From: Alphaproteobacteria bacterium UBA1185
GTDB lineage: Bacteria > Pseudomonadota > Alphaproteobacteria > Rs-D84
NCBI GenBank assembly: GCA_002310415.1
Contig: DBYN01000001.1
Coordinates: 4,332 to 68,331 of the forward strand
Length of the DNA stretch: 64,000 nucleotides
Direction of reading: 5' to 3'
Below, in pieces: positions 295 through 52,344 of this stretch. The notes beneath the pieces are model-generated. The model was not told where the DNA came from. It was given only the letters and a program-made list of their open reading frames with translations, and ran no database searches. Position numbers and translations under genes: made by a program. Every line of letters begins with the position of its first letter. Within the stretch, counting starts at the first letter, position 1.

Positions 295-3200
295 TTATAT
301 ACCCAAACGATGATGTATTTTAAACATTAAAATCGATTCGTTTCCGAATACATCCATATTATTCGGATTTATACGATATATCAAACCAACACCAGCATCT
401 GTAAATTCGCCCAATGCACGTTTATAAGAAGTTGAAAATCTTAACTCACGTTTTTGAACAGACAAATCAATGTATTCAGTATGTGCATTATTAACCGCAA
501 TTTCATACTTCCCACCATTTTCAACAACATCAAAATCTGCATAACCATAACCCAACTTGCCGTCTGTCACAGCCAAAGGCAAAGCAAATGTAAATTCAAA
601 GCCACCAAAATCCATTCCAAATGCAAAAGCATTTGATTTGATATCTGATATTTGCGAAATAAATTCACTTTGATTATCTGCACTGGTTAACGCGAACGTT
701 CCACGCAAAGATAACTTTACGTTATCAAATGGTTTATAAGTTGCCAGCGCATCAACATAGTTCGTTTTTGCATTATTCATCGCCAGCATTCCGTCAGTCA
801 ACATACCCAACACTGTATTATTTTCATACATGACACCGAACGACATATTCAACCCAAATTTATCATTAACATACTTTGCATCAAAAGAACCACCATTTGT
901 CAACCCTAAACGCATTGGTTCAAATTGAGATGACACAGTTGGATCTGTATCCAATAAATTTTCATCAGTCATCGCACCAACAAAACCACGACCACCAAAT
1001 GCAAAATGCCCTATTTTATACATTGTATTTGCAGAAAGCGTATCAGACATCAACCCCAATACAGCATTTGCACGACCATTAAATCTGGATTCCCCATCTG
1101 TCAAATAACGTTGATATTCTGTTGAAAAATCAAAACTGTCATTTGCCCAAGAAATACGCATATTATCCAAACCATTCAAATTATCATTATAAGCACGTGT
1201 TGACATAGCCATATCTATTCTTAAATTGCCAATTTGATTTGAATGTTTATTTGTCGAATCAATATTAAAATCACCCAGCACATCACCCATATACAAACCA
1301 TGTTTATTATCAACAAAACCCAATGTAAAAGTATTTTTCCAAACACGTGGCAAAGACAAAGTTCCATCCATGCTTTCCATAATATCATAGAATGAAATAT
1401 TTACATCACCACGTCCAGCCAATGACAAAGCGCCAGATGAACGATACGATGTCGTTGCAGAACGCCAATACGCCGTTTTACCTGAACTGGAAACAATCGT
1501 ATTTTTATCAGCATTATACACATACACATTTGTTCCAGGTCTTGTTGCACGTTCCAAATTTATCATACCATAGCCAAAAACTTGTTTAAAATTATCCAAA
1601 TAGTTTGCATTTGTTACATCAAATTCCCCCGGCAACGTATACATATTTTTAAGATATGTTATTAATTCATCAGTATCTGTCCAATTGTTACCAGTATCTG
1701 GATTAGTTCCCAAATATGGACCATCAGCAGTCAAAGCCAATAATAAAAATATCTGTTTTGGCGATGCATAACTAAACGCACTTTGAACCAGCGCAACCCC
1801 ACCAGCCATCGCAGCAGTTGCATCTATATTGGTAACCCCCGGTGCTGTAAAACACCACGGATTAACGGCACCGTCATTTCCAGTACCTGTTAATCCACAA
1901 ATGCGAGACCTGTAAGTTACACCATCTTCCACCCAATTTGATAATACTATTTTATTTTTATCGGTTGGCGCATACCCATCAATAGTAATATTATCTGTCC
2001 CTTTGTTTGGAAAAGCGGATACTACCGTTACAAATAAATTTTGTAATTTTGTAAAAATTGCAGGGGCAAAATTTTCAAATGTTGCAACCTGAGCAGCCAC
2101 ACTTGCATCCAAAGCCCCTGCATACTTGGACCATCCCGCAGGATTTATCAACATATATTGCTCATCATCTCGTTGATAATCACTTATATATTCAAAGACA
2201 TATTTTGCATCAGTTGCAGGCGCATTCAAATTATCATTTGTTTGTAAATCATAATATTTGTTTATCAAACTATAATACTGTTGAAGCGCCACAGTTTCAT
2301 TATGAGCATTTAATGCGAGATTATATGAAGCCTTTGCACTGCTTACTGTATCATATTCCAGATTATTTGAACTATCCGGCAAAGACAAATTAGCAATAAT
2401 ATTTGTAACATTTTTATTATCATCACCTTGCAGTTGTAATGCATCACGCATTGCGTAATAATTTCTGTAATCCGACGGAGTTGTTGACAATTCTTTAATC
2501 AAAGTCATCGCATTATCTGTCGTACTAAATTCATATATCTGATTTATATTACCATCCGCCAAAGAATCTATATACAATTTGTTGTTAATGATATAAGCAT
2601 TGTAAATCTTGGAATTATCATTTTGCGCGACCGCCGTTACCAACGATCCATCAACAGAATCTTCTGCTACATCTGTAATCCTTAATACCGTTCCATCCGC
2701 CAAAGTAAGGGTATCATCTTCACTTAACACCATACCAGCAAGAGTATAACTGCCTGTAACCGCAGAACCCTGTTCGGGTTCGACCCAATTACTGCCAGCG
2801 CCAGTTTTGTAAACAGTCAATTGTCCATTAGGAATAAAACCATAATAATCGCCGGATGCACGACCACCGTATTCCCAACCGGCGATTATTTTTGCCGACG
2901 TTGTATCTTGTTTATTTGCCACCCCAAACACTATTCCAGAACCTGATAAATCAAATTTCGTATCATCTTGACCAACAATACTATGGCTTACTTTGTAATC
3001 TTCATTATAATACTTATTTGACGTCTTCGTTGCGGCACTTAAAGCATTATAACAAAGCGCACTATTGTTTCCGTTTGCATTACACACAGATTGCACAGTT
3101 GGGATACTGGCTGCATCAACCCATGTAATTGTACCATTTGCAGAACTATCTGTGTTTTTAACGTTAACCCCACTGCCCGTTATCATGGCAACATTTACAG

Positions 3201-4005
3201 GTTTACCGCCATCCACAGGATTTTTGTTATTAACATTGGCTTCTACATATGGTAATAAACTTAAATTAAAAGGTGTTTTATCGTCCGCTATTCTAACAGT
3301 ACTCATTCCCAAATACCCACGCACAAAAGAATTATACGCATGCGACACCATCAAATAATTAAAACCATTGTCGGACATATAATCGAAATCTTGGTTATTT
3401 TTTTCCCACACCGAAAAATCAGTCGGACATGATGTAGCGCTATCACACGCTGGTCCATAAGGTAAATCCAAGGCAAACAATTTGCTTGCTTCGCCAGAAC
3501 CATTACCACCGCTACCACCACTACCACTGCCATGTGAACCACCAGACGAAGATGCATTATTATTATTCTCTGAATCAAAAGCATCGGTCAACAATGCCAC
3601 CCCACCAATAACCGCGGCCACCCCAACAGCAGACAACGCAACAACATGCGAAGAAGACAATCCACTGAAAAAGTCATATTCTTCACCCTTGGTTGCGACA
3701 TTCGTTTTGCGTTTATATTGCTTAATCTGTTTATCACAATCTGATGCATCTGCGCCATATCGCTGTAAAATCTGAATCGTGCGCTTATCATTATTCATAA
3801 CAGCGGTACAAACCAAAGATAACCCCGTAGAATCAACATAATTAACATCTGCCCCGGCGGTAATCAAAGCCTGAACCGTTTGCATATCACCACGTCGCGC
3901 AGCAGATAACAATTTCGTAGCATTTTGGAAATCAGAACCAGTCGCCCCAAATACATTGCAAGGAACCAACAAGCCCACAAACAGCCAAAACCTGATGTTT
4001 TTCAT
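295..4005 (-). CDS. Large secreted ankyrin-repeat protein with subtilase(S8)-like central region (catalytic residues apparently not conserved) and C-terminal beta-barrel, autotransporter-like
   Basis: 1236-aa ORF with signal peptide MKNIRFWLFVGLLVPCNVFGA. Two ANK repeats are present (LLSAARRGDMQTVQALITAGADVNYVDSTGLSLVCTAVMNNDKRTIQILQRYGAD), followed by an N/G/S-rich linker. GKPVNVAMITGSGVN resembles the S8 Asp-box, and DATAAMAGGVALVQSAFSYASPKQIFLLLALTAD resembles the S8 Ser-box region. The last ~280 aa show alternating G/F/Y/N-rich strands like an outer-membrane barrel. Confidence 0.6.
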   Translation of the reverse strand: MKNIRFWLFVGLLVPCNVFGATGSDFQNATKLLSAARRGDMQTVQALITAGADVNYVDSTGLSLVCTAVMNNDKRTIQILQRYGADASDCDKQIKQYKRKTNVATKGEEYDFFSGLSSSHVVALSAVGVAAVIGGVALLTDAFDSENNNNASSSGGSHGSGSGGSGGNGSGEASKLFALDLPYGPACDSATSCPTDFSVWEKNNQDFDYMSDNGFNYLMVSHAYNSFVRGYLGMSTVRIADDKTPFNLSLLPYVEANVNNKNPVDGGKPVNVAMITGSGVNVKNTDSSANGTITWVDAASIPTVQSVCNANGNNSALCYNALSAATKTSNKYYNEDYKVSHSIVGQDDTKFDLSGSGIVFGVANKQDTTSAKIIAGWEYGGRASGDYYGFIPNGQLTVYKTGAGSNWVEPEQGSAVTGSYTLAGMVLSEDDTLTLADGTVLRITDVAEDSVDGSLVTAVAQNDNSKIYNAYIINNKLYIDSLADGNINQIYEFSTTDNAMTLIKELSTTPSDYRNYYAMRDALQLQGDDNKNVTNIIANLSLPDSSNNLEYDTVSSAKASYNLALNAHNETVALQQYYSLINKYYDLQTNDNLNAPATDAKYVFEYISDYQRDDEQYMLINPAGWSKYAGALDASVAAQVATFENFAPAIFTKLQNLFVTVVSAFPNKGTDNITIDGYAPTDKNKIVLSNWVEDGVTYRSRICGLTGTGNDGAVNPWCFTAPGVTNIDATAAMAGGVALVQSAFSYASPKQIFLLLALTADGPYLGTNPDTGNNWTDTDELITYLKNMYTLPGEFDVTNANYLDNFKQVFGYGMINLERATRPGTNVYVYNADKNTIVSSSGKTAYWRSATTSYRSSGALSLAGRGDVNISFYDIMESMDGTLSLPRVWKNTFTLGFVDNKHGLYMGDVLGDFNIDSTNKHSNQIGNLRIDMAMSTRAYNDNLNGLDNMRISWANDSFDFSTEYQRYLTDGESRFNGRANAVLGLMSDTLSANTMYKIGHFAFGGRGFVGAMTDENLLDTDPTVSSQFEPMRLGLTNGGSFDAKYVNDKFGLNMSFGVMYENNTVLGMLTDGMLAMNNAKTNYVDALATYKPFDNVKLSLRGTFALTSADNQSEFISQISDIKSNAFAFGMDFGGFEFTFALPLAVTDGKLGYGYADFDVVENGGKYEIAVNNAHTEYIDLSVQKRELRFSTSYKRALGEFTDAGVGLIYRINPNNMDVFGNESILMFKIHHRLGI

Positions 4006-4094
4006 GAAACTACTCTCTCTATCAAGTAAACTTTAACATAAATTGACATATTGTGTCCAGCGTTTTTAATTGCACAAATAACATATTTTTTTCG

Positions 4095-4123
4095 TTGCGT
4101 TGATATGCAATTTTTGATATACT
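4095..4123 (+). promoter_or_regulatory. Sigma70-like promoter for the 4141-8748 operon
   Basis: TTGCGT (4095-4100), a 17-nt spacer, then TATACT (4118-4123), about 18 nt upstream of the ATG at 4141. A GAGAG Shine-Dalgarno-like element precedes the ATG. Confidence 0.45.
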
Positions 4124-4140
4124 GAAACGCAAGAGAGAAA

Positions 4141-5115
4141 ATGAAATATCGTAATTTGTTTTTAACAATGGGATTGTTGTTCGTACCGCACGTTGTGTTT
4201 GGTGCGTGTTCTACTGCAAATTTAACACGTTGTTTGGATTCTGTATGTGCAATAAACATTGGTGCAAATCCTGCCGCCCGGTGTCAATATTGTGGATCGG
4301 CTACTTTTGGTGAATCAAAAACCGAAGGTGTGATGAAAAACGTAACTGCGGGCAGTGCTGCTAAATACACGATTTCTGACAAAGAATTGAAAAAGGCCCC
4401 CAAAGACCAGGGTCAACGTTATATATGGGCGACAGAACAATGTTTAAAGAAAGTCAAAGACTGCACCCAAGAAAATGTTGATGAAATTTACGACCCATTG
4501 ATTGAACAATCTTGCAAATCTGCTGGAATTTCTTTTGATGTGAAAAATTTGGCACAAAAGGCAACACAAACAAAAACTAAATCTGCATGCTCAACTGAAA
4601 TAACGGCTTGTGTTATTGCAGAAAATCATTGTATGGCAAATTATGGCAATTGTGAACTGGATGCTGATTTTGATAAACATTTTTCGGAATGTGCCCTTGT
4701 TGCAAGTGGTTGTGATGAATTTTCCAAAGACATACGTTCAACATTGGCATCTGCACGCAATACCGCATTTAAAAACGCAGAAAGTGCACTGGAAGGTATT
4801 GTGTTGGCGCACCAGGAAGCCCGCGAAACAAAATTAAATCAGGTTCAAGCGGCATGCACAGATCAATATGCAAAACAAAAGTGTGTATCAGACGTATGCG
4901 AAAATTATATGCCGAATAAATGCAGCCCGATGACATTGGCTATAAATTTGGGTTCAGAAGACCAAGATAAATATAAAATCGAACGTGCCTTGGCGGAAGA
5001 GTTTTGTTTATATCACGATACAGCATGCAGTCGTTTACCACCAACATTCAAACTAATAAAACCTATACAACTAAATCCGAACATCGATTTAGTAAAACAA
5101 GCAAAACGGAAGTAA
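4141..5115 (+). CDS. Secreted cysteine-rich protein, unknown family (P1 of four-gene operon)
   Basis: Signal peptide MKYRNLFLTMGLLFVPHVVFGA. The Cys module repeats as CSTANLTRCLDSVCAINIGANPAARC, CSTEITACVIAENHCMANYGNC and CTDQYAKQKCVSDVCENYMPNKC. No enzymatic motif recognised. Confidence 0.8.
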   Translation: MKYRNLFLTMGLLFVPHVVFGACSTANLTRCLDSVCAINIGANPAARCQYCGSATFGESKTEGVMKNVTAGSAAKYTISDKELKKAPKDQGQRYIWATEQCLKKVKDCTQENVDEIYDPLIEQSCKSAGISFDVKNLAQKATQTKTKSACSTEITACVIAENHCMANYGNCELDADFDKHFSECALVASGCDEFSKDIRSTLASARNTAFKNAESALEGIVLAHQEARETKLNQVQAACTDQYAKQKCVSDVCENYMPNKCSPMTLAINLGSEDQDKYKIERALAEEFCLYHDTACSRLPPTFKLIKPIQLNPNIDLVKQAKRK

Positions 5116-5118
5116 CAG

Positions 5119-6582
5119 ATGAAATATGTTAACAAAAGATTTTCAATGTCGGCATTACTGATTGCATCCGCAATATGTTCTTTGTTTGTTATTTCTGAAA
5201 ATGTAAGCGCGGCCCCACGCGCTGCAATTCGTGGCAGCGGTGTGGCACGTCAATCGGCGCAAAAGGCCACAACTCAAAATGTTACAGAAGAAACCGATTC
5301 GGAATTGCTTGAACCAGAAGAAGAGATATCAGAAACAGTTGATGTGGAAATTGATACCCCCGAACCCACTGCAAATAAATCAAAAAAATTTGATGCGGTT
5401 GCAACATCTGCATCCACAACATCATCTAAATCTGCGTCTGGCAATAATATGGCGGAAATGATTCGCAAAGAACGCGCCGCACATGCTGCAAAAGATGCAA
5501 TGTATGCCGCAGATGAACAGGCACGAAAGGCATCAAGCGGTTTAAATCAATGCGATCTTGGATTACGCGAATGCATGAAAAAAACATGTGGTGATGGTTT
5601 TATAAAATGTGCATTGGACGGGGATACAGATTTTGGTGCAAAAATAAATAAATGTAAACGCGATTTGCCATGCTCTGGCAAAGAAGTTAATTTGTTTTCC
5701 ACTGAAATCAAGGCTGACCGCGATTTAAATGTCCAAATTGCATCATATAATGCGGTAATTGATTGTGCTAATCTTTACAACAAATGTATAATATCAGAAT
5801 GTGGTACAACATTTGATAAATGTCTGGGCAAAAGTGCCGAAAATGCCGCATTAAATAAATGTAAAGATATTGCAACAAAATGCAAAGAATACGATTCTGG
5901 TTTACCTGCACGTGCCGGCAAAGTTATTGCGGGCTTGCGTCAAAATGCAGAAATAAATATCAAAAAAGACGAACAACGTTTGTATGATTTGCGTGAATTA
6001 ATGCAAAATGCATGCAAAAAATTGGGGGCATCATTTGATGAACGCAGTTTTGATTGTGTATATACTGTGGAATTTTTTGCCGGCGAAGACAACCCAGATA
6101 TCCCAAAGGCATCACGTAAATTATATGCAGGTGATATGTTTACATGTACCCAGGAATATTTTGGAATCGATGTTACAACATATCGTGAAAATGCTTTACG
6201 TGAAACACGTGCACAAAAGGCTGCATCTTCTGCTATGTTGGGTGCTGGGGCTGGTGTGGCGGCTGGCGCAATTGCATCTGGCGCAATAGGTCGTGCAATT
6301 GAAACAGACAAAGCCAAGAAAGAAGTAAACGAAGCCGAAAAAGAAAAATCAAAAGTAGAATGTGAAAATGCCAGTAATTATTGGGTTAATAACAAGGAAT
6401 GTGTAAAAGATGGTGCCGAATGTTCAACTGGTGTGGCGGGCAGTAGTAAAGGCACAGGAACATGGAAAAAAGATGCATCAGGTCCATATTGTCATGTTAC
6501 AGAATGTAACACAAAATTGGGCTGGAAACCCGCCAAAGACGGAAAAAGTTGCGCTTTCTTGAAAAAGAACCAAGCACAATAA
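5119..6582 (+). CDS. Secreted cysteine-rich protein with glycine-zipper hydrophobic segment, unknown family (P2)
   Basis: Starts 3 nt after P1. Signal peptide MKYVNKRFSMSALLIASAICSLFVISENVSA, then an acidic/Ser-rich linker. Cys modules are CDLGLRECMKKTCGDGFIKC and CANLYNKCIISECGTTFDKC. A Gly/Ala-rich segment (AMLGAGAGVAAGAIASGAIG) is followed by a second Cys-rich tail. Confidence 0.8.
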   Translation: MKYVNKRFSMSALLIASAICSLFVISENVSAAPRAAIRGSGVARQSAQKATTQNVTEETDSELLEPEEEISETVDVEIDTPEPTANKSKKFDAVATSASTTSSKSASGNNMAEMIRKERAAHAAKDAMYAADEQARKASSGLNQCDLGLRECMKKTCGDGFIKCALDGDTDFGAKINKCKRDLPCSGKEVNLFSTEIKADRDLNVQIASYNAVIDCANLYNKCIISECGTTFDKCLGKSAENAALNKCKDIATKCKEYDSGLPARAGKVIAGLRQNAEINIKKDEQRLYDLRELMQNACKKLGASFDERSFDCVYTVEFFAGEDNPDIPKASRKLYAGDMFTCTQEYFGIDVTTYRENALRETRAQKAASSAMLGAGAGVAAGAIASGAIGRAIETDKAKKEVNEAEKEKSKVECENASNYWVNNKECVKDGAECSTGVAGSSKGTGTWKKDASGPYCHVTECNTKLGWKPAKDGKSCAFLKKNQAQ

Positions 6583-6607
6583 ACAAAAAATAATAAAATA
6601 AAGAAAA

Positions 6608-7954
6608 ATGAAAATAACAAATAAAATTTTAATCGCCATATTAATGTGTATGCCATTGGTTGCATGGGGTACTGTTACACAAGAAACGTTACAAGCAATT
6701 GAAAACGCAGAGTCTGTGGAGACGGCAAAGCAACGCGCAACCGAAGCACTAACAAAATCAAAGCAACAATATCCAAAAGCCAACAATACAAATATTATAG
6801 ACGAAGCACAAAATACGATAAAATCGGCAAGTGGTGGTAATGGCAACAAAGCTGACTCTGAAAAAAAATCTATTGAACAACCAAAGGAAGAAGATTCCCA
6901 AGAACCCGCACCCCAAAAGGATGACATAGACCAGGCCGCAGAATCTGTCGAAGTAGCACCTGAAGAAAACAACGGCGACAAACCTGAAAAAGACAAAGCC
7001 GCAGAGGATAAAGCTGCAAATCCAGACGCAGAGAAACAAGATAAACTGGATGAAGCCCAATCTAAAATTGATGCCGCCAAAGATAAATTAGCGGCTGCTG
7101 AAGATAACCAAAATTCATGGCAGAATCGTTTGTTAAATGGTTTAACAATAGCTGCAACTGGTATTGGTGGCATGCAATTGGCCCAGGGTATTGCCGAAAA
7201 GTCTGCTGACAGCGCCGCAGACAAAGATATGGAAGCATATATGAAAACTATGTATTGTAAATACGGTGGTATGCATACTGTGCCGTTTGGTATCGACCCT
7301 GTTGAATTGCCCGGTGGAAATGACAGCGAAGTAATGCAATACCGTAATGAATATCTTGCCAAGGCTGCATCTTTGAAGACCCGCAAAGAAGCATTGGGAT
7401 TAAAACCAGGTATTGAATCCGAAGAAATTTTGGACAGGGCAAGTATGGGATTATATGATGATGAAAATCGTGGTGTAACTGGCGGACATTACGCATCACG
7501 TTATCGTGCCGAAACGGGTAGCGAAGATGACAAGAAAGGTTTGGATTCTGCCAAGAAAGAAGCCAAAACACGTATGATTGCCGGTGGTGTTGTAGCGGGT
7601 GTCGGAATCGTTGGTGGTATTGTCGGCAACAGTATTATAAATGGCAGATTGGGCAAATTAATCAAAGAAAAGAATTCTGATTTTGACAAAGATGATAACG
7701 ACAAAGCAATACGCAAAATCAAAGCCGTAATGGAAGATGCAGGTATTAAAGGCACAGATAGATTAAATCTTACCAATTTGGACGTTCGTGATTTGGGCGA
7801 TGAAGCCGATAATCTTAAATTTAAAACATCCGTCAAGGGCAAATATGCAACCAGCCTGTTTAAAACCAGCAGCGCCAGTGCATTTACAGACAGTTTGTAT
7901 GAACACTTGACCTCGGACAGTAAAAAGGAAATAGATGGTGCTGGTGCAAAATAG
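6608..7954 (+). CDS. Secreted acidic/Lys-rich protein with glycine-zipper segments, unknown family (P3)
   Basis: Signal peptide MKITNKILIAILMCMPLVAWG. A long E/K/D/A-rich low-complexity region follows. Hydrophobic Gly-rich segments are LTIAATGIGGMQLAQGIA and MIAGGVVAGVGIVGGIVGNSIING. The 302-aa antisense ORF is judged a shadow. Confidence 0.75.
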   Translation: MKITNKILIAILMCMPLVAWGTVTQETLQAIENAESVETAKQRATEALTKSKQQYPKANNTNIIDEAQNTIKSASGGNGNKADSEKKSIEQPKEEDSQEPAPQKDDIDQAAESVEVAPEENNGDKPEKDKAAEDKAANPDAEKQDKLDEAQSKIDAAKDKLAAAEDNQNSWQNRLLNGLTIAATGIGGMQLAQGIAEKSADSAADKDMEAYMKTMYCKYGGMHTVPFGIDPVELPGGNDSEVMQYRNEYLAKAASLKTRKEALGLKPGIESEEILDRASMGLYDDENRGVTGGHYASRYRAETGSEDDKKGLDSAKKEAKTRMIAGGVVAGVGIVGGIVGNSIINGRLGKLIKEKNSDFDKDDNDKAIRKIKAVMEDAGIKGTDRLNLTNLDVRDLGDEADNLKFKTSVKGKYATSLFKTSSASAFTDSLYEHLTSDSKKEIDGAGAK

Positions 7955-7983
7955 AATAAGATAAACCAACAGGATTTAAAATT

Positions 7984-8748
7984 ATGAAATACAACAAACC
8001 CAGAATTTTTATAGCATTCCTTTGTCTGGCTATATTACCGGTTTCAAATGTTTTTGCTGCATCTTGTTTTGAAATGGTGACGGAAGATGTGAAGGCTATA
8101 TTAGAAGACCGTAATGCTAAACTAAAATATCTGGAACTAGATGACAACGACATAGAAAAAATACAAAAACTATATGACGAAGATAACCAATGTGAACAAG
8201 AACACAATTGTCCCCAGGTAATTGCTGCTGCTTTGGAATCAGATATATGTCCACAAGTGTTAATGGGCATTTGTGGTGAAATTTCGGGTACTATGACACA
8301 AGATAAACAATCTTGTGGTAAACGTGAAACACCTGCAAACAAATCATTATCCGACATAAAACAAGAAATTGAAGAAGCAGAACAACGGATAAAGTCAACT
8401 GATTTCTTTGAATCTTGTGAACAAAGCGCATCATCATCAAAATACTATACATTAATTTGCAGAAATAGCCCATATAAATTAGAAATATTATACGACCTTA
8501 GCAACGCAACTTGTCCAGATGGACAAGAAGTATATAAAGGCGAATGTCGCGAAAAAGAAAAGACCGAACAAAAACCAGATGAACTGGAAGAATCTAAACC
8601 TGCTGAACAGGAACAAGAAAAAACGGATGAAGCAGAACAAAACGACAAAGAACAATCGGCAGAATACGATAATGAAAAACTACAACAAGATGTTGATGCG
8701 ATTATGCGTGCATTCAATAACAATCCACACGTACAAACAAGCAAATAA
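7984..8748 (+). CDS. Secreted Cys-containing protein with acidic C-terminal tail, unknown family (P4)
   Basis: Signal peptide MKYNKPRIFIAFLCLAILPVSNVFA. Cysteines are scattered through the protein (CEQEHNCPQV..ICPQVLMGICGE..). The C-terminus is E/K/Q-rich. It is the last gene of the co-directional cluster. Confidence 0.7.
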   Translation: MKYNKPRIFIAFLCLAILPVSNVFAASCFEMVTEDVKAILEDRNAKLKYLELDDNDIEKIQKLYDEDNQCEQEHNCPQVIAAALESDICPQVLMGICGEISGTMTQDKQSCGKRETPANKSLSDIKQEIEEAEQRIKSTDFFESCEQSASSSKYYTLICRNSPYKLEILYDLSNATCPDGQEVYKGECREKEKTEQKPDELEESKPAEQEQEKTDEAEQNDKEQSAEYDNEKLQQDVDAIMRAFNNNPHVQTSK

Positions 8749-12278: not shown

Positions 12279-13100
12279 ATGACTTGGACAATAATCATCC
12301 TGATTGCCGCGATTGCATTGTATATGTTTGGGCATATATTGCTAAAACGCGACAACAAGAAAACATCTTTAATGGATGTTGTTATGCACAAAGGCATCTC
12401 TGCAATCGCAATTATTTTGATTGCTGGTTGTATGGTTCGCCTGGTTGTACCTGTGTACTTGACCAAAACAAATCCTGCTATATTGCAAGAAATGGTTACG
12501 TCTATGCAGGCTCAGCAAGAACAAGAAAAGAACAAAGTTGTTCGCAAATACGTCAAAGATCATGCTAATGATATGATTGGTGATGCACCAATTGCTGGTA
12601 ACGTAGATGCAACCAAGACAATATTCTTGTGGTCTGACTATTCTTGCCCATATTGCCGTCGTGTACATGGTGATTTGATGCGTGTATTGGCGGAACGTAA
12701 CGACGTTCGTTTGGTGTTGAAAAACTTCTCTATTCATGGCGCATTGTCTGATGCACCAGCCAAAGCAGTTATCGCTGCTAAAATCCAAGATAATGCAAAA
12801 GCAGTTGCATTGGATAAATTGTTGATGGATAAAGAATATTATTCACACGAAGATATGAAAGACAAAGACAAATTGGCTAGCAAAATCGAAGCAAATGTTA
12901 TGAAATTAGCAAAAGAAGCTGGTTTGGATACAAAAAAATTGGCAGAAGATATGAAAGGCGATGTTGTTAAAAACGAATTGAAACAAGTTCGTGAATTGGC
13001 ACAACGTTTTGAAATCAGCGGTACACCATATTTGATTATCGGTGAACAAGCGTTCCCTGGTGCTATCCCATATGCCAAAATTATCGAAGCATTGAAATAA
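12279..13100 (+). CDS. Membrane-anchored DsbA-family thiol:disulfide oxidoreductase
   Basis: N-terminal TM helices (WTIIILIAAIALYMFGHILL; AIAIILIAGCMVRLVV) and a thioredoxin-fold CPYC active site in LWSDYSCPYCRRVH. The tail GTPYLIIGEQAFPGAIPY carries the cis-Pro loop context. Confidence 0.8.
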   Translation: MTWTIIILIAAIALYMFGHILLKRDNKKTSLMDVVMHKGISAIAIILIAGCMVRLVVPVYLTKTNPAILQEMVTSMQAQQEQEKNKVVRKYVKDHANDMIGDAPIAGNVDATKTIFLWSDYSCPYCRRVHGDLMRVLAERNDVRLVLKNFSIHGALSDAPAKAVIAAKIQDNAKAVALDKLLMDKEYYSHEDMKDKDKLASKIEANVMKLAKEAGLDTKKLAEDMKGDVVKNELKQVRELAQRFEISGTPYLIIGEQAFPGAIPYAKIIEALK

Positions 13101-13592: not shown

Positions 13593-14816
13593 TTAATTAT
13601 CAAAACCCATACATCTTCTGTATGATTGCCTGTCGCGTTTTGTCCAACATTGTTTAAACAAAGAATCCTTTGCACCCTTGTCTTTAAGTGGTCCATAATA
13701 CAAATCCAAATAACCTATTGATGTAATTTTGCATTTACCGTCTACATTTTTCCCCTTATACATACACCGACACTCCGACAAATCTTCGTTAGGTTCTTGC
13801 AACAACGGACATTTTTTTACCTGTTTAAGCGGTGGAATATTAATAACATTTCCTTTGTTATCGGTTGTTGTAGCTGGTCCGCCAGGACAATACAAGCGCC
13901 CTTCTTGCGCAGTTTTTACCCACTCGGGATTAGAATCACATCTTACACACTTGCTATTCGCATGGACATAAACATTACCAGCTTCACATGATGGGGCAAA
14001 TTTAAAAGTCGGATTTACACTGCCATTTCCCCAATTATTATAATGTACTTCGTTTTTTGTTATTCCCTGAGGCACATCTTTAATTTCAGTCACGACGACA
14101 TCACCAGGACAATCGTAGTCCATTGTACAAGACTCACAACAGCTTATTGTATCTGTATTCTGTTTAATCCTATTTATAAACGTTGAACGATCTGGAACAT
14201 GATATCTAGTGGAACAAGCAAATTTACCAACTACTTCAAACGTTTCTGTATTAATATATACATCACCCCAACTAGTATTCCTTCCTCTCTCATTCGGATC
14301 ACATTTTACAATCTTGGTACATTTTGCAGAACACGAATTACAATCTGTCACATTATAAGTATACTCATGCTCAGAATATTTATTACATTTAAACGTCGTT
14401 ACAACACAAGCGGTTTTAGCATCATTGACATTCCATTCAACTTCAGCCATACTTGATACATCATAACCTGCTTTTGCCTTCTTAAGACATTGTTGTTTTT
14501 CGGTATCATTTGTATTTGTAGTGCTACAATTGCATTTGCCATGCTCTTCGTTAAATTCATCCACATCACCATCACAAACTTCAGCACCTTCAAACTCATA
14601 ACCCGTACACACCATCCCACTTGGACAATCTACACACTTAGACACCCCATTTTTTATCTGGAGATATTTTCCTGGCTTACATTTCTGCGGCTCTATATAA
14701 GTAGAGTCACACGAACCACCCCCATAACAATTTGGAACCAAAAACAAAAACATGGTAAAGAACACCAGGCAACGCTTTAATTTTGTATGTAGTTCTGCGG
14801 GTTCCAGCATACTCAT
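13593..14816 (-). CDS. Secreted cysteine-rich protein with furin-like / ephrin-receptor-like repeats
   Basis: Signal-like N-terminus (CLVFFTMFLFLVPNCYG). I count about 30 Cys in the mature part by hand. Repeats of the type CKPGKYLQIKNGVSKCVDCPSGMVCTG and NSKCVRCDSNPEW..GRLYCPGG are present. Confidence 0.7.
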   Translation of the reverse strand: MSMLEPAELHTKLKRCLVFFTMFLFLVPNCYGGGSCDSTYIEPQKCKPGKYLQIKNGVSKCVDCPSGMVCTGYEFEGAEVCDGDVDEFNEEHGKCNCSTTNTNDTEKQQCLKKAKAGYDVSSMAEVEWNVNDAKTACVVTTFKCNKYSEHEYTYNVTDCNSCSAKCTKIVKCDPNERGRNTSWGDVYINTETFEVVGKFACSTRYHVPDRSTFINRIKQNTDTISCCESCTMDYDCPGDVVVTEIKDVPQGITKNEVHYNNWGNGSVNPTFKFAPSCEAGNVYVHANSKCVRCDSNPEWVKTAQEGRLYCPGGPATTTDNKGNVINIPPLKQVKKCPLLQEPNEDLSECRCMYKGKNVDGKCKITSIGYLDLYYGPLKDKGAKDSLFKQCWTKRDRQSYRRCMGFDN

Positions 14817-35223: not shown

Positions 35224-36906
35224 TTACATCTTTTCATTATCAGAACGATTGTGTCCTTGCAATACATTATTTTTTAATTTTTCACTTGCTGTGCTTATTT
35301 TATCTTTTATTGCCAAAACCGCATTTTTAAACACATCTAATGTTGAAATTTCACCGAATATTTTTATTTTACTTGCATTTGTACCACCGTTTTTTCTATA
35401 TATGTAAGCATTATCATATTCCCAACCATATTCTGTTACTTTGGTCTGTGGTCCAATAATTATATTATCTTTGACCCATACGTTTTTTTCAAAAACAATA
35501 TCTTTTACATCACTAAAATCATAGTTACCCACCATCAATACGTTTTGCAAACCTATCTTTGTTGCATGCGGGTTAATTTTAAATTGTTTGCTATCAACCG
35601 TAAGTAAACCCCAATCATCTTCATATAAATATAACGCATCTACATTATTGAAATCGTATTCCGGGTCAGGAAATTTACATTTGTACAAAACAAGTTCTTT
35701 GACATCCATACCTTTGAAATCTATTGCTTGTACAGATTCATTTCGTGCCCACAATTCATGTATTGATTTTATTTTTTTTATATCTATTCCCCGGGTAAAC
35801 AGTAGATTATATGGAACACTTTTCAATTCTACATCTTGCGGTAAATCAAACATATCAACAACACCACCATGTACATCTTCAACAAAGCCTATGTTTTCTG
35901 TATCAACTATTAGACGTTTATTATCTGGATTTTCCTTTGGATAGCGATAAGCCTGTCTGAAAGTACCATCTTCGTTCCTTTCCACCAAGTCTTTATTAGT
36001 AATTCTTGCACGTTCTTCCGCTGTAAACTCATTTGGGAAAGCACAGTTTAAATAATTTTTTAAAAATTCACGAACTTGTTTGATATATTTACCATTTACC
36101 GGTCCATTGGCTTTACCTTTAATCTGATGCACAACATTTCTTCTGACCTCTATTGTGGCATGAGAACCATTACTGTTACGTACAGAGTATATTTGTGATG
36201 CACCTTTTTTGACACCTTCATCATATACACCATCTCCAATACACACCCCCATTGCATTACCCTCGTAATCCAATGCTTCTGGTGTTATTAATTGAAAAAC
36301 AGATAACCCATTGCCCAAATCCATTACAAATTTTGTACCAGTATCTGCTTTTTCTTTTTGTTCCAGGGTCATGGCATTTTTTGCATTATTTGACAATTCA
36401 TTGTGCCAATCACGAGCCTGTTGAACAACATTGTCAATAGTCTGGTATTTAGCATTTTTCTTTAAATAATCATATTCTATACGTAATTGTTTTTTACCAT
36501 TTGATAATTCGACATCTTTTAATTCTTTTTTAATATAATCCACCGCCACAGAATATAAATAATCACGAATTTCCAATAATTCATTACGAAATTCATTTGG
36601 AACTTTGCCAGCATCAAATTCATAAATATCTTCACCACGTGCAAAAGTAGTTTTGGTCCATTCTGGTAAACCAGAACGCGTTTTGTCCACTTTTACAAAA
36701 CATGGTAATTCTGTGCGCGAAATACTGTAATCACGCACTCTGCGTTTAACATATTGAAATAAGATATTACGAGCAATTGCATCTATATTTTCACGTGCTA
36801 TTTCAACGTTTTCAACCCGGATAATCGTTGGGGCGCCACCATCATAAACCAAATCTTGCAAATATCTGTTTAATGATTTTTCTTCCAAAAGATTTATTAC
36901 AGCCAT
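35224..36906 (-). CDS. PcfJ-like domain protein with repeat-containing C-terminal half
   Basis: 560 aa. EGNAMGVCIGDGVYDEGVKKGASQIYSVRNSNGSHATIEVRRNVVHQIKGKANG resembles the conserved core of PcfJ-like proteins of conjugative elements (E..M.hC.g..Y...g...iySlR...g.p..TiE.....i.Q.kG..N). Assigned from memory of the family, not from a search. Confidence 0.5.
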   Translation of the reverse strand: MAVINLLEEKSLNRYLQDLVYDGGAPTIIRVENVEIARENIDAIARNILFQYVKRRVRDYSISRTELPCFVKVDKTRSGLPEWTKTTFARGEDIYEFDAGKVPNEFRNELLEIRDYLYSVAVDYIKKELKDVELSNGKKQLRIEYDYLKKNAKYQTIDNVVQQARDWHNELSNNAKNAMTLEQKEKADTGTKFVMDLGNGLSVFQLITPEALDYEGNAMGVCIGDGVYDEGVKKGASQIYSVRNSNGSHATIEVRRNVVHQIKGKANGPVNGKYIKQVREFLKNYLNCAFPNEFTAEERARITNKDLVERNEDGTFRQAYRYPKENPDNKRLIVDTENIGFVEDVHGGVVDMFDLPQDVELKSVPYNLLFTRGIDIKKIKSIHELWARNESVQAIDFKGMDVKELVLYKCKFPDPEYDFNNVDALYLYEDDWGLLTVDSKQFKINPHATKIGLQNVLMVGNYDFSDVKDIVFEKNVWVKDNIIIGPQTKVTEYGWEYDNAYIYRKNGGTNASKIKIFGEISTLDVFKNAVLAIKDKISTASEKLKNNVLQGHNRSDNEKM

Positions 36907-44587: not shown

Positions 44588-46540
44588 ATGAAAAAAACTT
44601 TATGTTTAACATCCTTGCTTGCAATTATGGCAACCAATGCTGCAATTGCAAATACAGATGTAACTTTTGGTGGTAAATATTTATTGCCAGATGGGACAGA
44701 AGCAAACGTCAGCACAAATGTTGGCGACACCACATATACCTATACTAAAACTGATGGTTCCAATGCGACCGCAGCATATGATGAAGACCCAAATTTAACA
44801 TATTTTACATATACAAACAAAGATGGTATTACCGCTAATTTATCATCTGGAACTGGTTTGACACAATCTGATTTTAATGCAGACAGTGCCGCAACAGGTG
44901 ATGTAATAACAACACAAACAATAGCAGCAGGCGAAACCGCAGATAGAGCAAATTATACATACGTAAATGGTAAAGGTAATACTGTTGTATTGGGTGACGC
45001 TAAACAATCTTTCACAGAATCATACAATTTATTAACAGGTTTACCAATTTCTAACGATTATACTATCGCATTGGCTGATAATTATATCACCTCTGTTGAT
45101 GTCACAGATGGCACACCAGATAACACTTTGGATGGTACACACTATATTTTACATGCATCTAATAACAATGATTACAGACTGAACGAAGACGGAACTGAAA
45201 TCAGAAAAGTCAGCGACGGCAGTATTGTTAATATTGCAGATTTTCCAGATATAAGTTCAGAATTAACTGCTTTACAAAATGCATACACTTCAGATGTCTC
45301 TGCAATCAACAATTTGAGAACACAAACCGGTGACTGGGCCGCCGATGAAACAACAGCATGGGGGACCGCTGATACAATATTTAATACCGATTCAAATAAA
45401 ATTAACACATTGAATGGATATTATACAGAATACACCGATGCATTAAGCGCATTGGATGCAGCAAATTCAGCAAAAGCAGATGCTGTTGAAGCAAATACAG
45501 AAAATATTGCCTATCAAACCGCTGCACGCGATTTGTATAATTCATCAATTGAAACGACATTAGCAAGTGTAGAACAAAATGCCAAAGATTACGCGGACAA
45601 TTTGGCATCTAATTATGATGCAGCAGGTTCTGCAAATACTGCTGAACAAAACGCCAAAGATTACGCAGACAATTTAGCATCTAATTATGATGCAGCGGGT
45701 TCTGCAAATACTGCTGAACAAAATGCCAAAGATTACGCAGACAATTTGGCATCTAATTATGATGCTGCCGGAACATCTGCCACAGAAACCGCACGTGCAA
45801 CAGCAGAAGAAGCATCTATTCGTTCGGATTTTGCGACTGCGGATACTGCGACATTAACTGCTGCAAATGGTTATACAGATACGGCTGTATCGGTCGAAGC
45901 AGCACGTGTTGATGCAACAATGGGTACAATCCATGGATTGGTTGGAAACGCAAACGCACCTACAACATCTAATGGTAAAAAATACAATGGCAACTTGGCA
46001 GTTGGTACAACAGTTGAAGACCATTTATTAGCATTAGATGATTCAATCGGTGACAGAAGAACCTTGAACGGTAATCATGTGTCTAAATCTGTTTCCGTTG
46101 TTGAAAACCTGCAATCTTTGAATGACGATTTAGATGCAGAAATTGCACGTGCAACAGCAGAAGAAGCATCTATCCGTTCAGATTTTGCAGCTGCTGATGC
46201 TTTGACTTTAAACCAAGCAAAAGCATATGCAGATAACATTAATGCATTGAACTTGCAGGCGGCCAAATCTTATACAGATGAACGTATTCAAAAATTAGAC
46301 AAAGATTTGTCTGCTGGTATCGCCAGTTCTGTTGCTTTATCTTCTGTATCTGTATCAAATGTTCAAAAAGGCGAAGTATCCGTCGGTGCAGGTTACGGAT
46401 TATATAACGGTCAATCCGCAATGGCATTTGGTGCAGCAATGGGCTTGTCTAACAACTGGTCTGTAAATGCCGGTGCCGGAATTTCTAATTCGGATTTTTC
46501 GTTCCGCGCAGGTACAAATTATAAATTCAAATTATTTTAA
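44588..46540 (+). CDS. Trimeric autotransporter adhesin (YadA-like C-terminal anchor)
   Basis: Signal peptide MKKTLCLTSLLAIMATNAAIA. A Thr/Asn/Asp-rich passenger is followed by repeated stalk motifs (ARATAEEASIRSDFA.AD twice). The C-terminal anchor is AGIASSVALSSVS...SVGAGYGLYNGQSAMAFGAAMGLSNNWSVNAGAGIS..FRAGTNYKFKLF. Confidence 0.85.
   Translation: MKKTLCLTSLLAIMATNAAIANTDVTFGGKYLLPDGTEANVSTNVGDTTYTYTKTDGSNATAAYDEDPNLTYFTYTNKDGITANLSSGTGLTQSDFNADSAATGDVITTQTIAAGETADRANYTYVNGKGNTVVLGDAKQSFTESYNLLTGLPISNDYTIALADNYITSVDVTDGTPDNTLDGTHYILHASNNNDYRLNEDGTEIRKVSDGSIVNIADFPDISSELTALQNAYTSDVSAINNLRTQTGDWAADETTAWGTADTIFNTDSNKINTLNGYYTEYTDALSALDAANSAKADAVEANTENIAYQTAARDLYNSSIETTLASVEQNAKDYADNLASNYDAAGSANTAEQNAKDYADNLASNYDAAGSANTAEQNAKDYADNLASNYDAAGTSATETARATAEEASIRSDFATADTATLTAANGYTDTAVSVEAARVDATMGTIHGLVGNANAPTTSNGKKYNGNLAVGTTVEDHLLALDDSIGDRRTLNGNHVSKSVSVVENLQSLNDDLDAEIARATAEEASIRSDFAAADALTLNQAKAYADNINALNLQAAKSYTDERIQKLDKDLSAGIASSVALSSVSVSNVQKGEVSVGAGYGLYNGQSAMAFGAAMGLSNNWSVNAGAGISNSDFSFRAGTNYKFKLF
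45572..45770 (+). repeat. 72-nt in-frame tandem repeat (~2.75 copies) inside the adhesin gene
   Basis: Units start at 45572, 45644 and 45716 and encode EQNAKDYADNLASNYDAAGSANTA. Copies differ at only a few, mostly synonymous, positions. Confidence 0.9.
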
Positions 46541-51180: not shown

Positions 51181-52344
51181 ATGAGGGATTTAATGATGAA
51201 GAAATTTCACAGAAATCTTAATATAATGTCCATTTTCACAGCATTATTGTTGGTTGGTATTTTGCTGTTTTGGCACACGTTTATGAATATCGCTATATCT
51301 AATATCTTGTTAAATGGCATTATTATCGGCACAACGATTTTCGGCATCGGGTTGTGTTTTGTAAACATTTTTAATTTATTACCCGAATATAAATGGTTAC
51401 ATGCATATTTTGACGGACGCGCAGATTCTGGTTTTATACCAAAATTATTGCGTCCTATTGCCTTGGCTTTACACAACAGACACGTGCATATTACTACAAC
51501 CAATTTAACAGAATTATTAGATTTGGTTTCTATACGAATTGAAGACGAACGTGATTCTGTAAGATATGTTACCAATACATTGATTTTTTTGGGATTGCTT
51601 GGCACATTTTGGGGATTGATTTTAACAGTTGGTGGATTTGCAGATTTGTTAATGCACTTGGATTTTGATGATTCTGCGGTTTTGAATAATATGCAAATGG
51701 GAATGGCGAAACCATTAGCTGGTATGGCAACCGCATTTACGAGTTCCTTACTTGGTCTTGCGGGCAGTTTGGTTGTTGGATTTTTGGGTCTGCAGTTACA
51801 ATTTGCACAAAATACTATTTTTCAAGATTTAACCGATTTAATGTCAAAGTATGTTTTAAAACGTCCAGATATGGGTGAAAAAGCAATGGAGTTATCAGAA
51901 AAAGCCCCCGTAACAGAAGGGATATACGAAAAAATATCCAACATATACGACATATTCACGAATAACGGGTATGAAATATGTGATTTAATACGAATTGATG
52001 GAAAACATCCCGCGGTCGTTGCATTGGGCAATAATGAAACCTTGTTCATCGGAACAACGGGTGTTGATAACGAAACATTGAAAAACACGTTAAAACGAAT
52101 CGAATTGTGTTTTGCAGATACACTGGAAGGAATCAAAATAAACACTAAAATATTATGCATATCAGGAAACAAAGAAACTGTCGATGACAATATTATGCAT
52201 TTTGTTTCCGCTGGAACAATGCGCAAATACATGGAACAACACAAAAACGTTCGCCCACAAACAAAACAAGATTGGGAAACATTTGATGCGTATGCTGAAT
52301 ACATTCGCATAGCAATTGAATACTTGTTTAAACCAAATAAATAA
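51181..52344 (+). CDS. MotA/TolQ/ExbB-family proton-channel protein with ~170-aa C-terminal soluble extension
   Basis: Four predicted TMs. Family-typical LIFLGLLGTFWGL and GMATAFTSSLLGLAGSLVVGF are present. A C-terminal domain of unknown family is unusual for TolQ/ExbB/MotA. Confidence 0.7.
   Translation: MRDLMMKKFHRNLNIMSIFTALLLVGILLFWHTFMNIAISNILLNGIIIGTTIFGIGLCFVNIFNLLPEYKWLHAYFDGRADSGFIPKLLRPIALALHNRHVHITTTNLTELLDLVSIRIEDERDSVRYVTNTLIFLGLLGTFWGLILTVGGFADLLMHLDFDDSAVLNNMQMGMAKPLAGMATAFTSSLLGLAGSLVVGFLGLQLQFAQNTIFQDLTDLMSKYVLKRPDMGEKAMELSEKAPVTEGIYEKISNIYDIFTNNGYEICDLIRIDGKHPAVVALGNNETLFIGTTGVDNETLKNTLKRIELCFADTLEGIKINTKILCISGNKETVDDNIMHFVSAGTMRKYMEQHKNVRPQTKQDWETFDAYAEYIRIAIEYLFKPNK

Follow-up and report, generated by a model that had tools for sequence, protein, structure and literature searches.

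Relation to described envelope systems

The described systems closest to the locus analysed here are the outer membrane complex of chlamydiae (COMC; OmcA, OmcB, MOMP and Pmp), which contains the Pmp autotransporters; the subtilisin-like type Va autotransporters fusolisin (Fusobacterium, 8axg), NalP and SphB1; the Gly-zipper segments of SlyB, Pcp, the rickettsial 17-kDa antigen and the N-terminus of VacA; and the streptococcal M protein, mycoplasma Vlp/Vsa and neisserial Opa proteins. The locus lies in a window of 64,000 nt (the whole stretch of DNA that was analysed) from Alphaproteobacteria bacterium UBA1185, a member of Rs-D84 (contig DBYN01000001.1, positions 4,332 to 68,331 of the forward strand). 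It comprises four co-directional genes, P1 to P4, and a divergent gene for an ankyrin protein, AnkAT. The evidence for P1–P3 and AnkAT as a co-inherited, selected unit of new protein families is solid. Positions refer to the window:

295-4005, minus strand: AnkAT, open reading frame (ORF) of 1236 aa, divergent from P1
4141-5115, plus strand: P1, ORF of 324 aa
5119-6582, plus strand: P2, ORF of 487 aa
6608-7954, plus strand: P3, ORF of 448 aa
7984-8748, plus strand: P4, ORF of 254 aa

The likeness to the COMC lies in neighbouring genes for exported envelope proteins unusually rich in Cys, in a small-genome bacterium that depends on a host, in presumed disulfide cross-linking, and in the association with a large autotransporter-like surface protein. 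In contrast to the chlamydial proteins, those of the Rs-D84 lineage (Candidatus Enterousia) consist mostly of helices and have Cx6C pairs, Gly-zipper segments and variable tails, and sequence, profile and fold similarity are absent: P1 and P2 gave no Pfam or NCBIfam match whatever, to OmcA, OmcB or another family, and no match among PDB sequences, and the P2 model gave no PDB fold match. The organism also keeps a class A penicillin-binding protein (PBP), MreB and RodA, and nothing points to a developmental cycle.

AnkAT resembles the type Va autotransporters in its signal peptide, in a weak alignment to the subtilase domain, in a C-terminal region of barrel-compatible length and in its genetic coupling to surface-type proteins. 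It differs from them in that 30 orthologues have neither a conserved catalytic His or Ser nor an Autotransporter or barrel profile match, and in that it has an N-terminal ankyrin domain and a strongly hydrophobic Gly/Ala segment, features that are not known from the subtilisin-like type Va autotransporters.

The exported proteins P2 and P3 share invariant, repeated GxxxG hydrophobic segments with the Gly-zipper proteins, and by analogy these segments suggest tight helix packing or oligomerisation at a membrane. Compared with the Gly-zipper lipoproteins, the segments of P2 and P3 are single, internal and placed between large disulfide-type domains. Finally, P3 recalls M protein, Vlp/Vsa and Opa in the sharp boundary between an invariant part and a hypervariable N-terminal part among near-identical strains, in mosaic alleles and in an excess of amino-acid-changing substitutions. 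It is unrelated to them in sequence and anchor, its surface exposure is a matter of interpretation, and no repeats, phase-variation tracts, donor cassettes or template of a diversity-generating retroelement (DGR) were found in the window.

Conservation, gene order and selection

GTDB species representatives were scanned by exact peptide patterns, a procedure that favours close relatives and that yielded 43 loci. These come from gut or rumen metagenome-assembled genomes (MAGs) that carry the labels Candidatus Enterousia, Alphaproteobacteria or uncultured proteobacterium, with one locus added from a termite gut; the named homologues of P1, P2 and P3 are from uncultured Alphaproteobacteria MAGs. 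Conservation and synteny of P1, P2 and P3 extend over about 40 species of the order Rs-D84 (Ca. Enterousia). Based on tblastn and hidden Markov model (HMM) searches, P2 directly follows P1 in every fetched locus with both genes on the contig, and the P3 core lies downstream of P2 in 24 fetched loci. AnkAT adjoins P1-P2 in all fetched loci with enough upstream sequence, except in the most divergent one (L043). In two loci (L002 and L040) AnkAT is relocated downstream on the plus strand, still linked to the cluster. In cluster P0094, which has 23 member sequences, P2 (aa 1-420) is naturally fused to the P3 core. Paralogues of P1–P4 were not found elsewhere in the 64-kb window.

The first-pass annotation of this DNA had proposed a four-gene unit. 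The syntenic co-occurrence in about 40 species bears this out for P1–P3 but not for P4, which has no significant homologue outside near-identical strains. The conserved unit is AnkAT, divergent from P1-P2-(variable genes)-P3, with P4 as a variable add-on of the strain lineage.

The restricted distribution is supported by HMMER: searched exhaustively in 1.84 billion representative proteins, the P1 profile returned 64 clusters (61 at E<=1e-10), all of them P1-sized or fragments. As only P1-like clusters were found, the family has a sharp edge, without a remote superfamily, in agreement with its earlier description as lineage-specific. Enterousia belongs to the GTDB order Rs-D84 and is widespread in rumen, horse, chicken, pig, termite and human guts; its genomes are mostly <1 Mb, without amino acid, nucleotide or lipid biosynthesis, standard transporters or flagella, and a dependence of the bacteria on partner organisms has been proposed (PMC12306168). 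Termites without flagellates also harbour the lineage (PMC11257099). No description of these genes was found in the available parts of the literature on Enterousia and Rs-D84.

We calculated dN/dS between the window and strains in which the protein identity of the housekeeping neighbours is 98.5% or higher. The values were 0.05 for P1, 0.15 for AnkAT and 0.28 for P2. That the locus is no functional unit, and that four unrelated or spurious ORFs stand together by chance, is extremely improbable and is contradicted for P1–P3. Such a chance arrangement would agree with the absence of known domains and with P4 having no homologues beyond its own strain lineage. Against it stand the hundreds of homologues, the strong purifying selection on P1 and P2, the conservation of gene order and promoter blocks across about 40 species, the P2-P3 gene fusion and the confident model of the P2 core.

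The genes flanking the cluster differ between species. In the window, GrpE-TpiA-PpiD-RecO follows P4 (8768-12206), whereas in most species (L004, L011, L026 and others) this block lies beyond AnkAT and rplI-rpsR-rpsF follows P3. The cluster has thus been relocated as one unit.

Operon structure and export signals

P1 to P4 are all on the plus strand with spacers of 3, 25 and 29 nt, which reproduces the coordinates of the first reading, and no plus-strand terminator-like site was found within 4141-8748. The region upstream of P1 contains the following sites:

4030-4059, minus strand: putative divergent AnkAT promoter from the promoter scan, TGGACA, 18-nt spacer, TAAAGT, with TG
4095-4123, plus strand: putative P1-operon promoter, TTGCGT (4095-4100), 17-nt spacer and TG-n-TATACT extended -10 (TATACT at 4118-4123)
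4131-4138, plus strand: Shine-Dalgarno-like block AAGAGAGA, preceding the P1 start codon

The TTGCGT-N17-TATACT string, proposed earlier as the promoter of the operon, is thus present. It is weak by its consensus score (8 of 12, under the threshold of the promoter scan), and promoter-like sites are not enriched in the region (16 found, 17 expected from shuffles), yet the block is conserved. When the 160 nt upstream of P1 were aligned for 41 loci, at least 80% of the loci retained the block cTTTGatTT..N..TTTTTGATATAnT, which corresponds to the P1 -35 and TG-extended -10, as well as the Shine-Dalgarno-like block and the TGTCCAGA block of the divergent AnkAT promoter. The P1 promoter block is kept even in rearranged loci with another upstream gene.

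Each of the four products has MKY or MKI at its start, then a basic n-region, a hydrophobic h-region with Kyte-Doolittle values of 1.9-2.4, and small residues at positions -3/-1. This pattern, which had been noted before as signal-peptide-like, is by heuristic reading conserved among the homologues of P1 (V/A-F/Y-G|A-C-S), P2 (A-N-A|A-P-R) and P3 (A-W-G|). P2 and P3 have AxA- and AxG-type contexts for signal peptidase I (SPase I) with no Cys at +1, i.e. without a lipobox. In P1, G21-A22-C23-S24 is invariant, and the invariant F/Y-G-A-C loosely resembles a lipobox, so that the lipobox status of P1 is ambiguous. SPase I is favoured for P1 because V/A at -3 and G at -1 suit cleavage before A22 and because its 20 Cys are an even number.

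The cysteine-rich proteins P1 and P2

Searches of Pfam, NCBIfam, PHROGs and PADLOC gave nothing significant for P1–P4, and the family profiles of P1, P2 and P3 had no match among PDB sequences, consistent with the first impression that no family was recognisable. The P1 family has 678 homologues, none with a Pfam domain, and its length is almost fixed at 287 aa; the window copy (324 aa) has an extra tail of ~25 aa. All 20 Cys of P1 are invariant in 111 homologues, mostly as Cx6C pairs. P2 has at least 498 homologues, among which the sole Pfam annotation is a low-complexity PF05262 match on P0107. Its 22 Cys include 15 that are invariant in the core, and the Cys modules first quoted for P1 and P2 were found in both proteins. 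A signal peptide, an Arg-rich N-terminal peptide, a disordered linker, a disulfide-rich helical core, a Gly zipper and a variable tail with Cys modules follow each other in P2:

5536-6168, plus strand: conserved core of P2, aa ~140-350, helical hairpins with twin Cx6C motifs and a small sheet; 15 invariant Cys in 121 homologues
6223-6294, plus strand: Gly-zipper segment of P2, AASSAMLGAGAGVAAGAIASGAIG, aa 369-392, Kyte-Doolittle maximum 1.6, low pLDDT
6361-6579, plus strand: variable tail of P2, aa 415-487, small Cys modules such as CHVTECNTKLGWKPAKDGKSC, strand-rich model with pLDDT ~78

An AlphaFold2 model of P2 was built from the alignment of 121 sequences. The core was modelled with a pLDDT of about 85-95, and the Cx6C pairs are placed on helices. 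In the zipper segment G375, G377 and G379 are invariant, within the small-xxx-small pattern G375xxxG379xxxG383. The tail is unalignable across the family, and differences between strains cluster there. The Cys-rich tail described at first reading thus exists in the window copy but is not a conserved property of the family. AlphaFold monomer models searched with Foldseek, a check that had been suggested for these proteins, were obtained for P2 and P3, and neither matched a PDB fold. For P2 the best E-values were 1.5 in PDB and 0.05 in BFVD, and the TM-scores, normalised to the query, were about 0.1. Like the Sel1-like and Helicobacter cysteine-rich proteins, P2 has helices with Cys pairs, but no match to the Sel1 repeat (PF08238) was obtained and Foldseek found no repeat-protein match.

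Two further interpretations of the cysteines were not accepted. Comparison of P1 and P2 with hhalign gave a module similarity over 41 columns (E=1.2e-3, probability 19.5%), which shows a shared motif style and does not demonstrate that the two are paralogues. A heme or cytochrome function was rejected on direct reading, as the CxxCH motif is absent and P1 has only CQYCG.

A separate observation concerns the N-terminus of mature P2. Directly after the predicted cleavage site lies an Arg-rich peptide, A-[PTS]-R-x-A-[VI]-R-G-T-x-A-A-R-K (aa 32-45, 5212-5253), followed by the disordered linker. R34, R38 and R44 are nearly invariant in 121 sequences, and the peptide could be a binding or processing motif.

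A likely provider of disulfides for the Cys-rich proteins is encoded outside the operon:

12279-13100, plus strand: membrane-anchored DsbA-like thiol:disulfide oxidoreductase with CPYC, matching PF01323 and PF13462

The gene has been retained in spite of a genome of <1 Mb (PMC12306168). The Pfam scan of the window also identified a class A PBP, OmpA-family proteins and a YadA-type anchor; together with the DsbA-like protein these indicate a diderm cell with peptidoglycan.

The cysteines raise the question of a structural role, in which P1–P3 would form a disulfide cross-linked, COMC-like envelope lattice that rigidifies or tethers the envelope, with the variable parts as spacers without a display role. 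We regard this as unlikely. The dense invariant Cys, the strong constraint on P1 and the cores and the retained DsbA-like gene all agree with it, as do the odd Cys counts of the P2 core (15) and P3 (1), which would allow intermolecular disulfides, and the linkage of the cluster to a large protein of possible autotransporter ancestry, as in the COMC with its Pmp autotransporters. However, the organism keeps peptidoglycan synthesis and MreB/RodA, as judged from Pfam matches in the window and from PMC12306168, so that the need for a protein corset is not obvious. No sequence or profile similarity to OmcA/OmcB was found. A lattice also leaves unexplained the trypsin-like and CarboxypepD_reg payloads on the P3 core, the inserted variable genes and the dN/dS above 1 in the N-terminal part of P3, which are described below.

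P3 combines a conserved core with a hypervariable N-terminus

P3 has at least 268 homologues, in which Pfam domains are almost confined to the N-terminal parts of some. The protein is made up of a signal peptide, a variable N-terminal part, a coiled coil, Gly-rich segment 1, the core, Gly zipper 2 and a C-terminal helical domain that is not conserved. The core contains a single invariant Cys, Cys217.

6680-7036, plus strand: hypervariable N-terminal region of P3, aa 25-143, with the densest variation at aa 79-143
7085-7642, plus strand: conserved core of P3, aa ~160-345, with Gly-rich segments at aa 176-197 (weaker) and 323-345

In the second segment G326 and G333 are invariant, and GxxxG pairs are formed by G327xxxG331, G333xxxG337 and G336xxxG340. 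Thus, the Gly/Ala-rich segments pointed out at first reading are present in both P2 (aa 369-392) and P3 (aa 323-345), with invariant key Gly. The P3 model had a mean pLDDT of 63.6, with low confidence in the Gly-rich segments. Its Foldseek search against PDB gave no match (best E 1.9; TM about 0.1 to the query and 0.43 to a small target).

Variation between near-identical strains is sharply localised. Residues 79-143 differ at 50 positions per 195 nt without any indel, distributed over the codon positions as 26:16:8 (chi-square p=0.0076), as compared to a single difference per 670 nt at aa 144-366. Over the whole gene dN/dS was 2.2 (66 nonsynonymous versus 8 synonymous; binomial p=0.017), a value that is based on three alleles and few allele pairs (p about 0.01-0.02). 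The three alleles showed 58 variable columns out of 119 at aa 25-143 and none out of 223 in the core; the third allele (P0241) varies in the same N-terminal block and looks mosaic.

A DGR or cassette mechanism was considered for this region and rejected, as no template or donor copy was found in the 64-kb window (blastn at chance level). The window has no second copy of the variable regions of P3 or P4, and no reverse transcriptase was found among its ORFs scanned against Pfam.

The domains N-terminal to the P3 core differ among homologues. Some carry trypsin-like proteases with intact SAGHC and GNSGGG motifs, and others a CarboxypepD_reg domain followed by repeats of small Cys modules. An OmpA-like domain seen by eye at the C-terminus of one homologue (L035) was not detected by Pfam at E<=0.01 and was dropped.

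In addition, a helical domain with pLDDT >90 at aa ~340-420 (~7625-7870) of P3 showed a weak match to residues 511-589 of Mycoplasma P116/MG075. A link to lipid uptake was not accepted: the match (E 0.046-0.84) covers only the K/E-rich, compositionally biased and non-conserved C-terminal part, and P116 was not among the Foldseek results. The similarity is of note only because the lineage is without lipid biosynthesis (PMC12306168).

P4 and the inserted variable genes

P4 has a signal peptide, 11 Cys and an acidic C-terminal half. It is present in the near-identical strains L044-L047 at 91% identity, with a dN/dS of 0.76 and changes clustered at aa 94-148, and it gave no tblastn match in the 43 loci. 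Of its weak similarities, the best were to the gene immediately behind P3 in L002 (phmmer E=0.0012) and in L001.

Many relatives have one or more Cys-rich signal-peptide genes of 130-1500 aa between P2 and P3, some with CarboxypepD_reg, whereas several species without an inserted variable gene still keep P1–P3. Ten inserted genes share a C-terminal helix motif, and an HMM of this motif recovered three further proteins outside the training set (E 1.7e-6 to 3e-4). P4 was not accepted as a member of this class, given an E-value of 3.4 with the motif HMM and only faint similarity to its positional analogues. Because of this E-value we treat P4 as a fast-evolving positional analogue, specific to its strain lineage, of the hypervariable Cys-rich cluster genes in relatives. 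Relative to the other proteins of these loci, P2 tails, P3 N-termini and inserted genes are enriched 10-40 times in two patterns of small Cys modules.

The divergent ankyrin protein AnkAT

AnkAT begins with a signal peptide, followed by ankyrin repeats (aa ~25-100), a Gly/Ala hydrophobic segment, a Gly/Ser linker, a large conserved region and ~360 C-terminal residues of no recognised type. The signal peptide pattern MKNIRFWLFVGLLVPCNVFG|AT, with a basic n-region, a hydrophobic core and small residues at -3/-1, is by heuristic reading conserved in the orthologues. The ankyrin domain contains the invariant C66 and C90, and ankyrin repeats alone were matched by Pfam in 30 of 30 orthologues.

3571-3672, minus strand: Gly/Ala-rich hydrophobic segment of AnkAT, SSHVVALSAVGVAAVIGGVALLTDAF, aa 112-145, Kyte-Doolittle maximum 2.53, conserved in orthologues
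1576-2445, minus strand: subtilase-like region of AnkAT, aa ~521-810, weakly similar to the subtilase domain of fusolisin

The Gly/Ala segment is flanked by the ankyrin domain with C66 and C90 on one side and by the large region with conserved short-range Cys pairs on the other. When the AnkAT profile (aa 150 to the end) was searched against PDB sequences, one weak family was found, fusolisin 8axg, with E=0.0031 over ~290 columns. The usual motif order AAGN / VGA / APG / Ser-helix is present in this region, and a weak match to mycosin, also a subtilase, lies in the same place (aa 728-773). No invariant or near-invariant His occurs at aa 121-1174 of the 30 orthologues, the position of the Ser motif is variable, and none of the orthologues has a Pfam Peptidase_S8 match. 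Thus, if homologous, the subtilase-like region would be catalytically dead. The C-terminal 360 aa of the same orthologues gave no Autotransporter or OMP Pfam match at E<=1 and no PDB sequence match at E<=10.

The gene had originally been called ankyrin autotransporter-like. The divergent orientation, the linkage and the ankyrin repeats are as described, but an autotransporter is not demonstrated by the weak similarity to fusolisin in a protein without a barrel match. AnkAT was accordingly not accepted as a bona fide autotransporter, since the 30 orthologues have no barrel (PF03797 or PDB) or Peptidase_S8 profile match, and an autotransporter ancestry is a plausible interpretation of its sequence rather than a finding.

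The subtilase autotransporters SphB1 and NalP process surface proteins in other bacteria, and this background, together with the inserted genes, suggests another scheme for the locus. P1, P2, P3 and AnkAT could be a dedicated machine for export, anchoring or maturation, with P4 and the inserted genes as substrates recognised via the signal peptide or the C-terminal helix. The embedding of variable genes in the cluster in many species, the C-terminal motif that recovered three proteins outside the training set (E 1.7e-6 to 3e-4) and the remote similarity of AnkAT to subtilase autotransporters all speak for such a machine. However, the subtilase-like region is without the conserved His and catalytic Ser, neither an ATPase nor a barrel nor any known secretion component could be detected, the match of P4 to the C-terminal motif is not significant (E=3.4), and several species have no inserted gene yet keep P1–P3. 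We therefore consider the machine quite unlikely.

Directly downstream of AnkAT, on the same strand, 31 loci encode a secreted choloylglycine/Ntn hydrolase (CBAH, PF02275, E=3e-67; 3660-4742 in L030 and 1051-2100 in L044), often accompanied by two small ORFs of no assigned family (f10 and f14). The minus strand of the window should hold just the 5' end of this gene (1-~183). The product may be a bile-salt or related amide hydrolase that is co-transcribed with AnkAT.

Topology and proposed function

The first-pass annotation had drawn attention to a topology paradox in P2, in which Cys-rich parts lie on both sides of the hydrophobic segment. The paradox is real and extends to AnkAT and P3, so that each of three linked proteins has a zipper-like segment between two seemingly extracytoplasmic parts. 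A single-pass layout in the inner membrane does not fit, because disulfide-type modules would then be cytoplasmic and because the P3 core would face different sides in stand-alone P3 and in the P2-P3 fusion. For the fusion to be consistent, the P2 tail and the P3 N-terminus must share one side. Two layouts fit. All parts may reside in a single extracytoplasmic compartment, with the zippers as peripheral or oligomerisation elements, or the helices may cross the outer membrane, with the conserved cores in the periplasm and the variable parts outside. The Cys parity (20 in P1, 15 in the P2 core and one invariant Cys in P3) is suggestive of an intermolecular disulfide between P2 and P3, which it would allow.

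Based on these observations we tentatively favour, at a likelihood somewhat short of even, a lineage-specific, DsbA-/disulfide-dependent extracytoplasmic scaffold of P1, the P2 core and the P3 core, together with AnkAT, that anchors and displays diversifying modules. P1 and the two cores would be exported by Sec, and disulfides made by DsbA would staple them into compact, mostly helical domains as the constant part of the assembly. The Gly-zipper segments of P2, P3 and AnkAT would embed the assembly in a membrane or attach it there, the outer membrane being the most plausible one, and would probably drive oligomerisation. The parts beyond the zippers, namely the P2 tail, the P3 N-terminus and extra genes such as P4, would be outward-facing, exchangeable and fast-evolving modules, built from small Cys repeats, CarboxypepD_reg beta-sandwiches, trypsin-like proteases or acidic linkers. 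These modules would contact, or be selected by, partner or host cells, phages or immunity. The earlier proposal of a disulfide-stabilised envelope or surface assembly agrees with the scaffold insofar as the invariant Cys fit disulfide stapling and a DsbA-like gene lies nearby, but the disulfides, the surface location and the oligomerisation are features that we infer.

Several results weigh against the scaffold. The hydrophobicity of the P2 segment (Kyte-Doolittle 1.6) and of P3 segment 1 (<1.2) is weak, the Gly-rich segments of P2 and P3 were modelled at low confidence, and neither protein matched the Gly-zipper families PF13488 and PF05433 in Pfam/NCBIfam at E<=1. No route across the outer membrane is evident, and the AnkAT C-terminus has no barrel signature detectable with Pfam or PDB sequences. 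P3 is not nearby in about 8 loci with adequate flank. Finally, the hypervariability of acidic, probably disordered linkers could in part reflect relaxed constraint and recombination instead of surface exposure.

The zipper segments also bear on a channel function. Gly zippers are a typical feature of channels that form homo-oligomers, the N-terminus of VacA, an autotransporter toxin, among them, and ankyrin repeats often target eukaryotic partners. AnkAT, P2 and P3 could by this background form an oligomeric channel or toxin-like pore for metabolite uptake, either in the cell's own outer membrane or in the membrane of a partner. Such a pore would be in keeping with the GxxxG-type zippers that are invariant in the three linked proteins and with an Rs-D84 lineage that is without standard transporters and many biosynthetic pathways (PMC12306168). 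It has a low probability in our view, since no similarity to a pore-forming family or fold was found, the hydrophobicity of two of the four segments is too low for a classical membrane span, the conserved mass consists mostly of soluble-type disulfide-rich domains, and nothing in the data points to secretion away from the cell.

The scaffold and its alternatives overlap. In a further reading, which we rate as unlikely, the zipper helices of P2, P3 and AnkAT build an alpha-helical, oligomeric assembly spanning the outer membrane, with the stapled cores in the periplasm and the exchangeable modules outside, by which a partner-dependent, transporter-poor bacterium would attach to other cells and possibly take up material from them. 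If true, this would be a previously undescribed route by which diderms anchor proteins at the outer membrane, or pass them across it, without a beta-barrel.

The protein families and their architecture are new, whereas the mechanism is an interpretation. At least three protein families with new folds are added, the folds having been compared from the P2 and P3 models, and the arrangement of extracytoplasmic domain, Gly zipper and extracytoplasmic domain challenges standard topology rules. The cluster and AnkAT occupy about 8.5 kb, roughly 1% of such a genome. Strongly constrained cores combined with diversifying parts are the signature expected of an interface with a partner, host or phage. 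The locus is a good candidate for the means by which these dependent bacteria make contact with their partners, and it provides a testable handle on the lifestyle of the lineage. The hypervariable region of P3 could also serve for strain typing.

Other genes in the window

A 650-aa protein (44588-46540, plus strand) carries a YadA-like membrane anchor (PF03895, E=1.8e-10) of a trimeric autotransporter adhesin, which indicates type V secretion and a minimum of one conventional surface adhesin in the lineage. A 407-aa protein with a signal peptide and 32 Cys (13593-14816, minus strand) has no Pfam match. It is 92% identical to its L044 orthologue, as compared to ~99% for housekeeping neighbours, with changes clustered in the N-terminal ~130 aa, and it is possibly another member of this class of exported, diversifying Cys-rich proteins.

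Two adjacent genes (51181-52344 and 52365-53522, plus strand) resemble a MotA/ExbB-like channel and a MotB-like protein. The MotA/ExbB-like assignment stems from a weak match in the relatives' copy; in the MotB-like protein (52365-53522) a long coiled coil occurs together with a C-terminal OmpA domain. Most relatives have the pair just downstream of the P1–P3 cluster, after rplI-rpsR-rpsF, and the lineage is reported to be without flagella (PMC12306168). A 560-aa protein with a PcfJ-like domain (35224-36906, minus strand; PF14284, E=2e-7) is encoded amid housekeeping genes. The PcfJ-like family is associated with conjugative or mobile elements.

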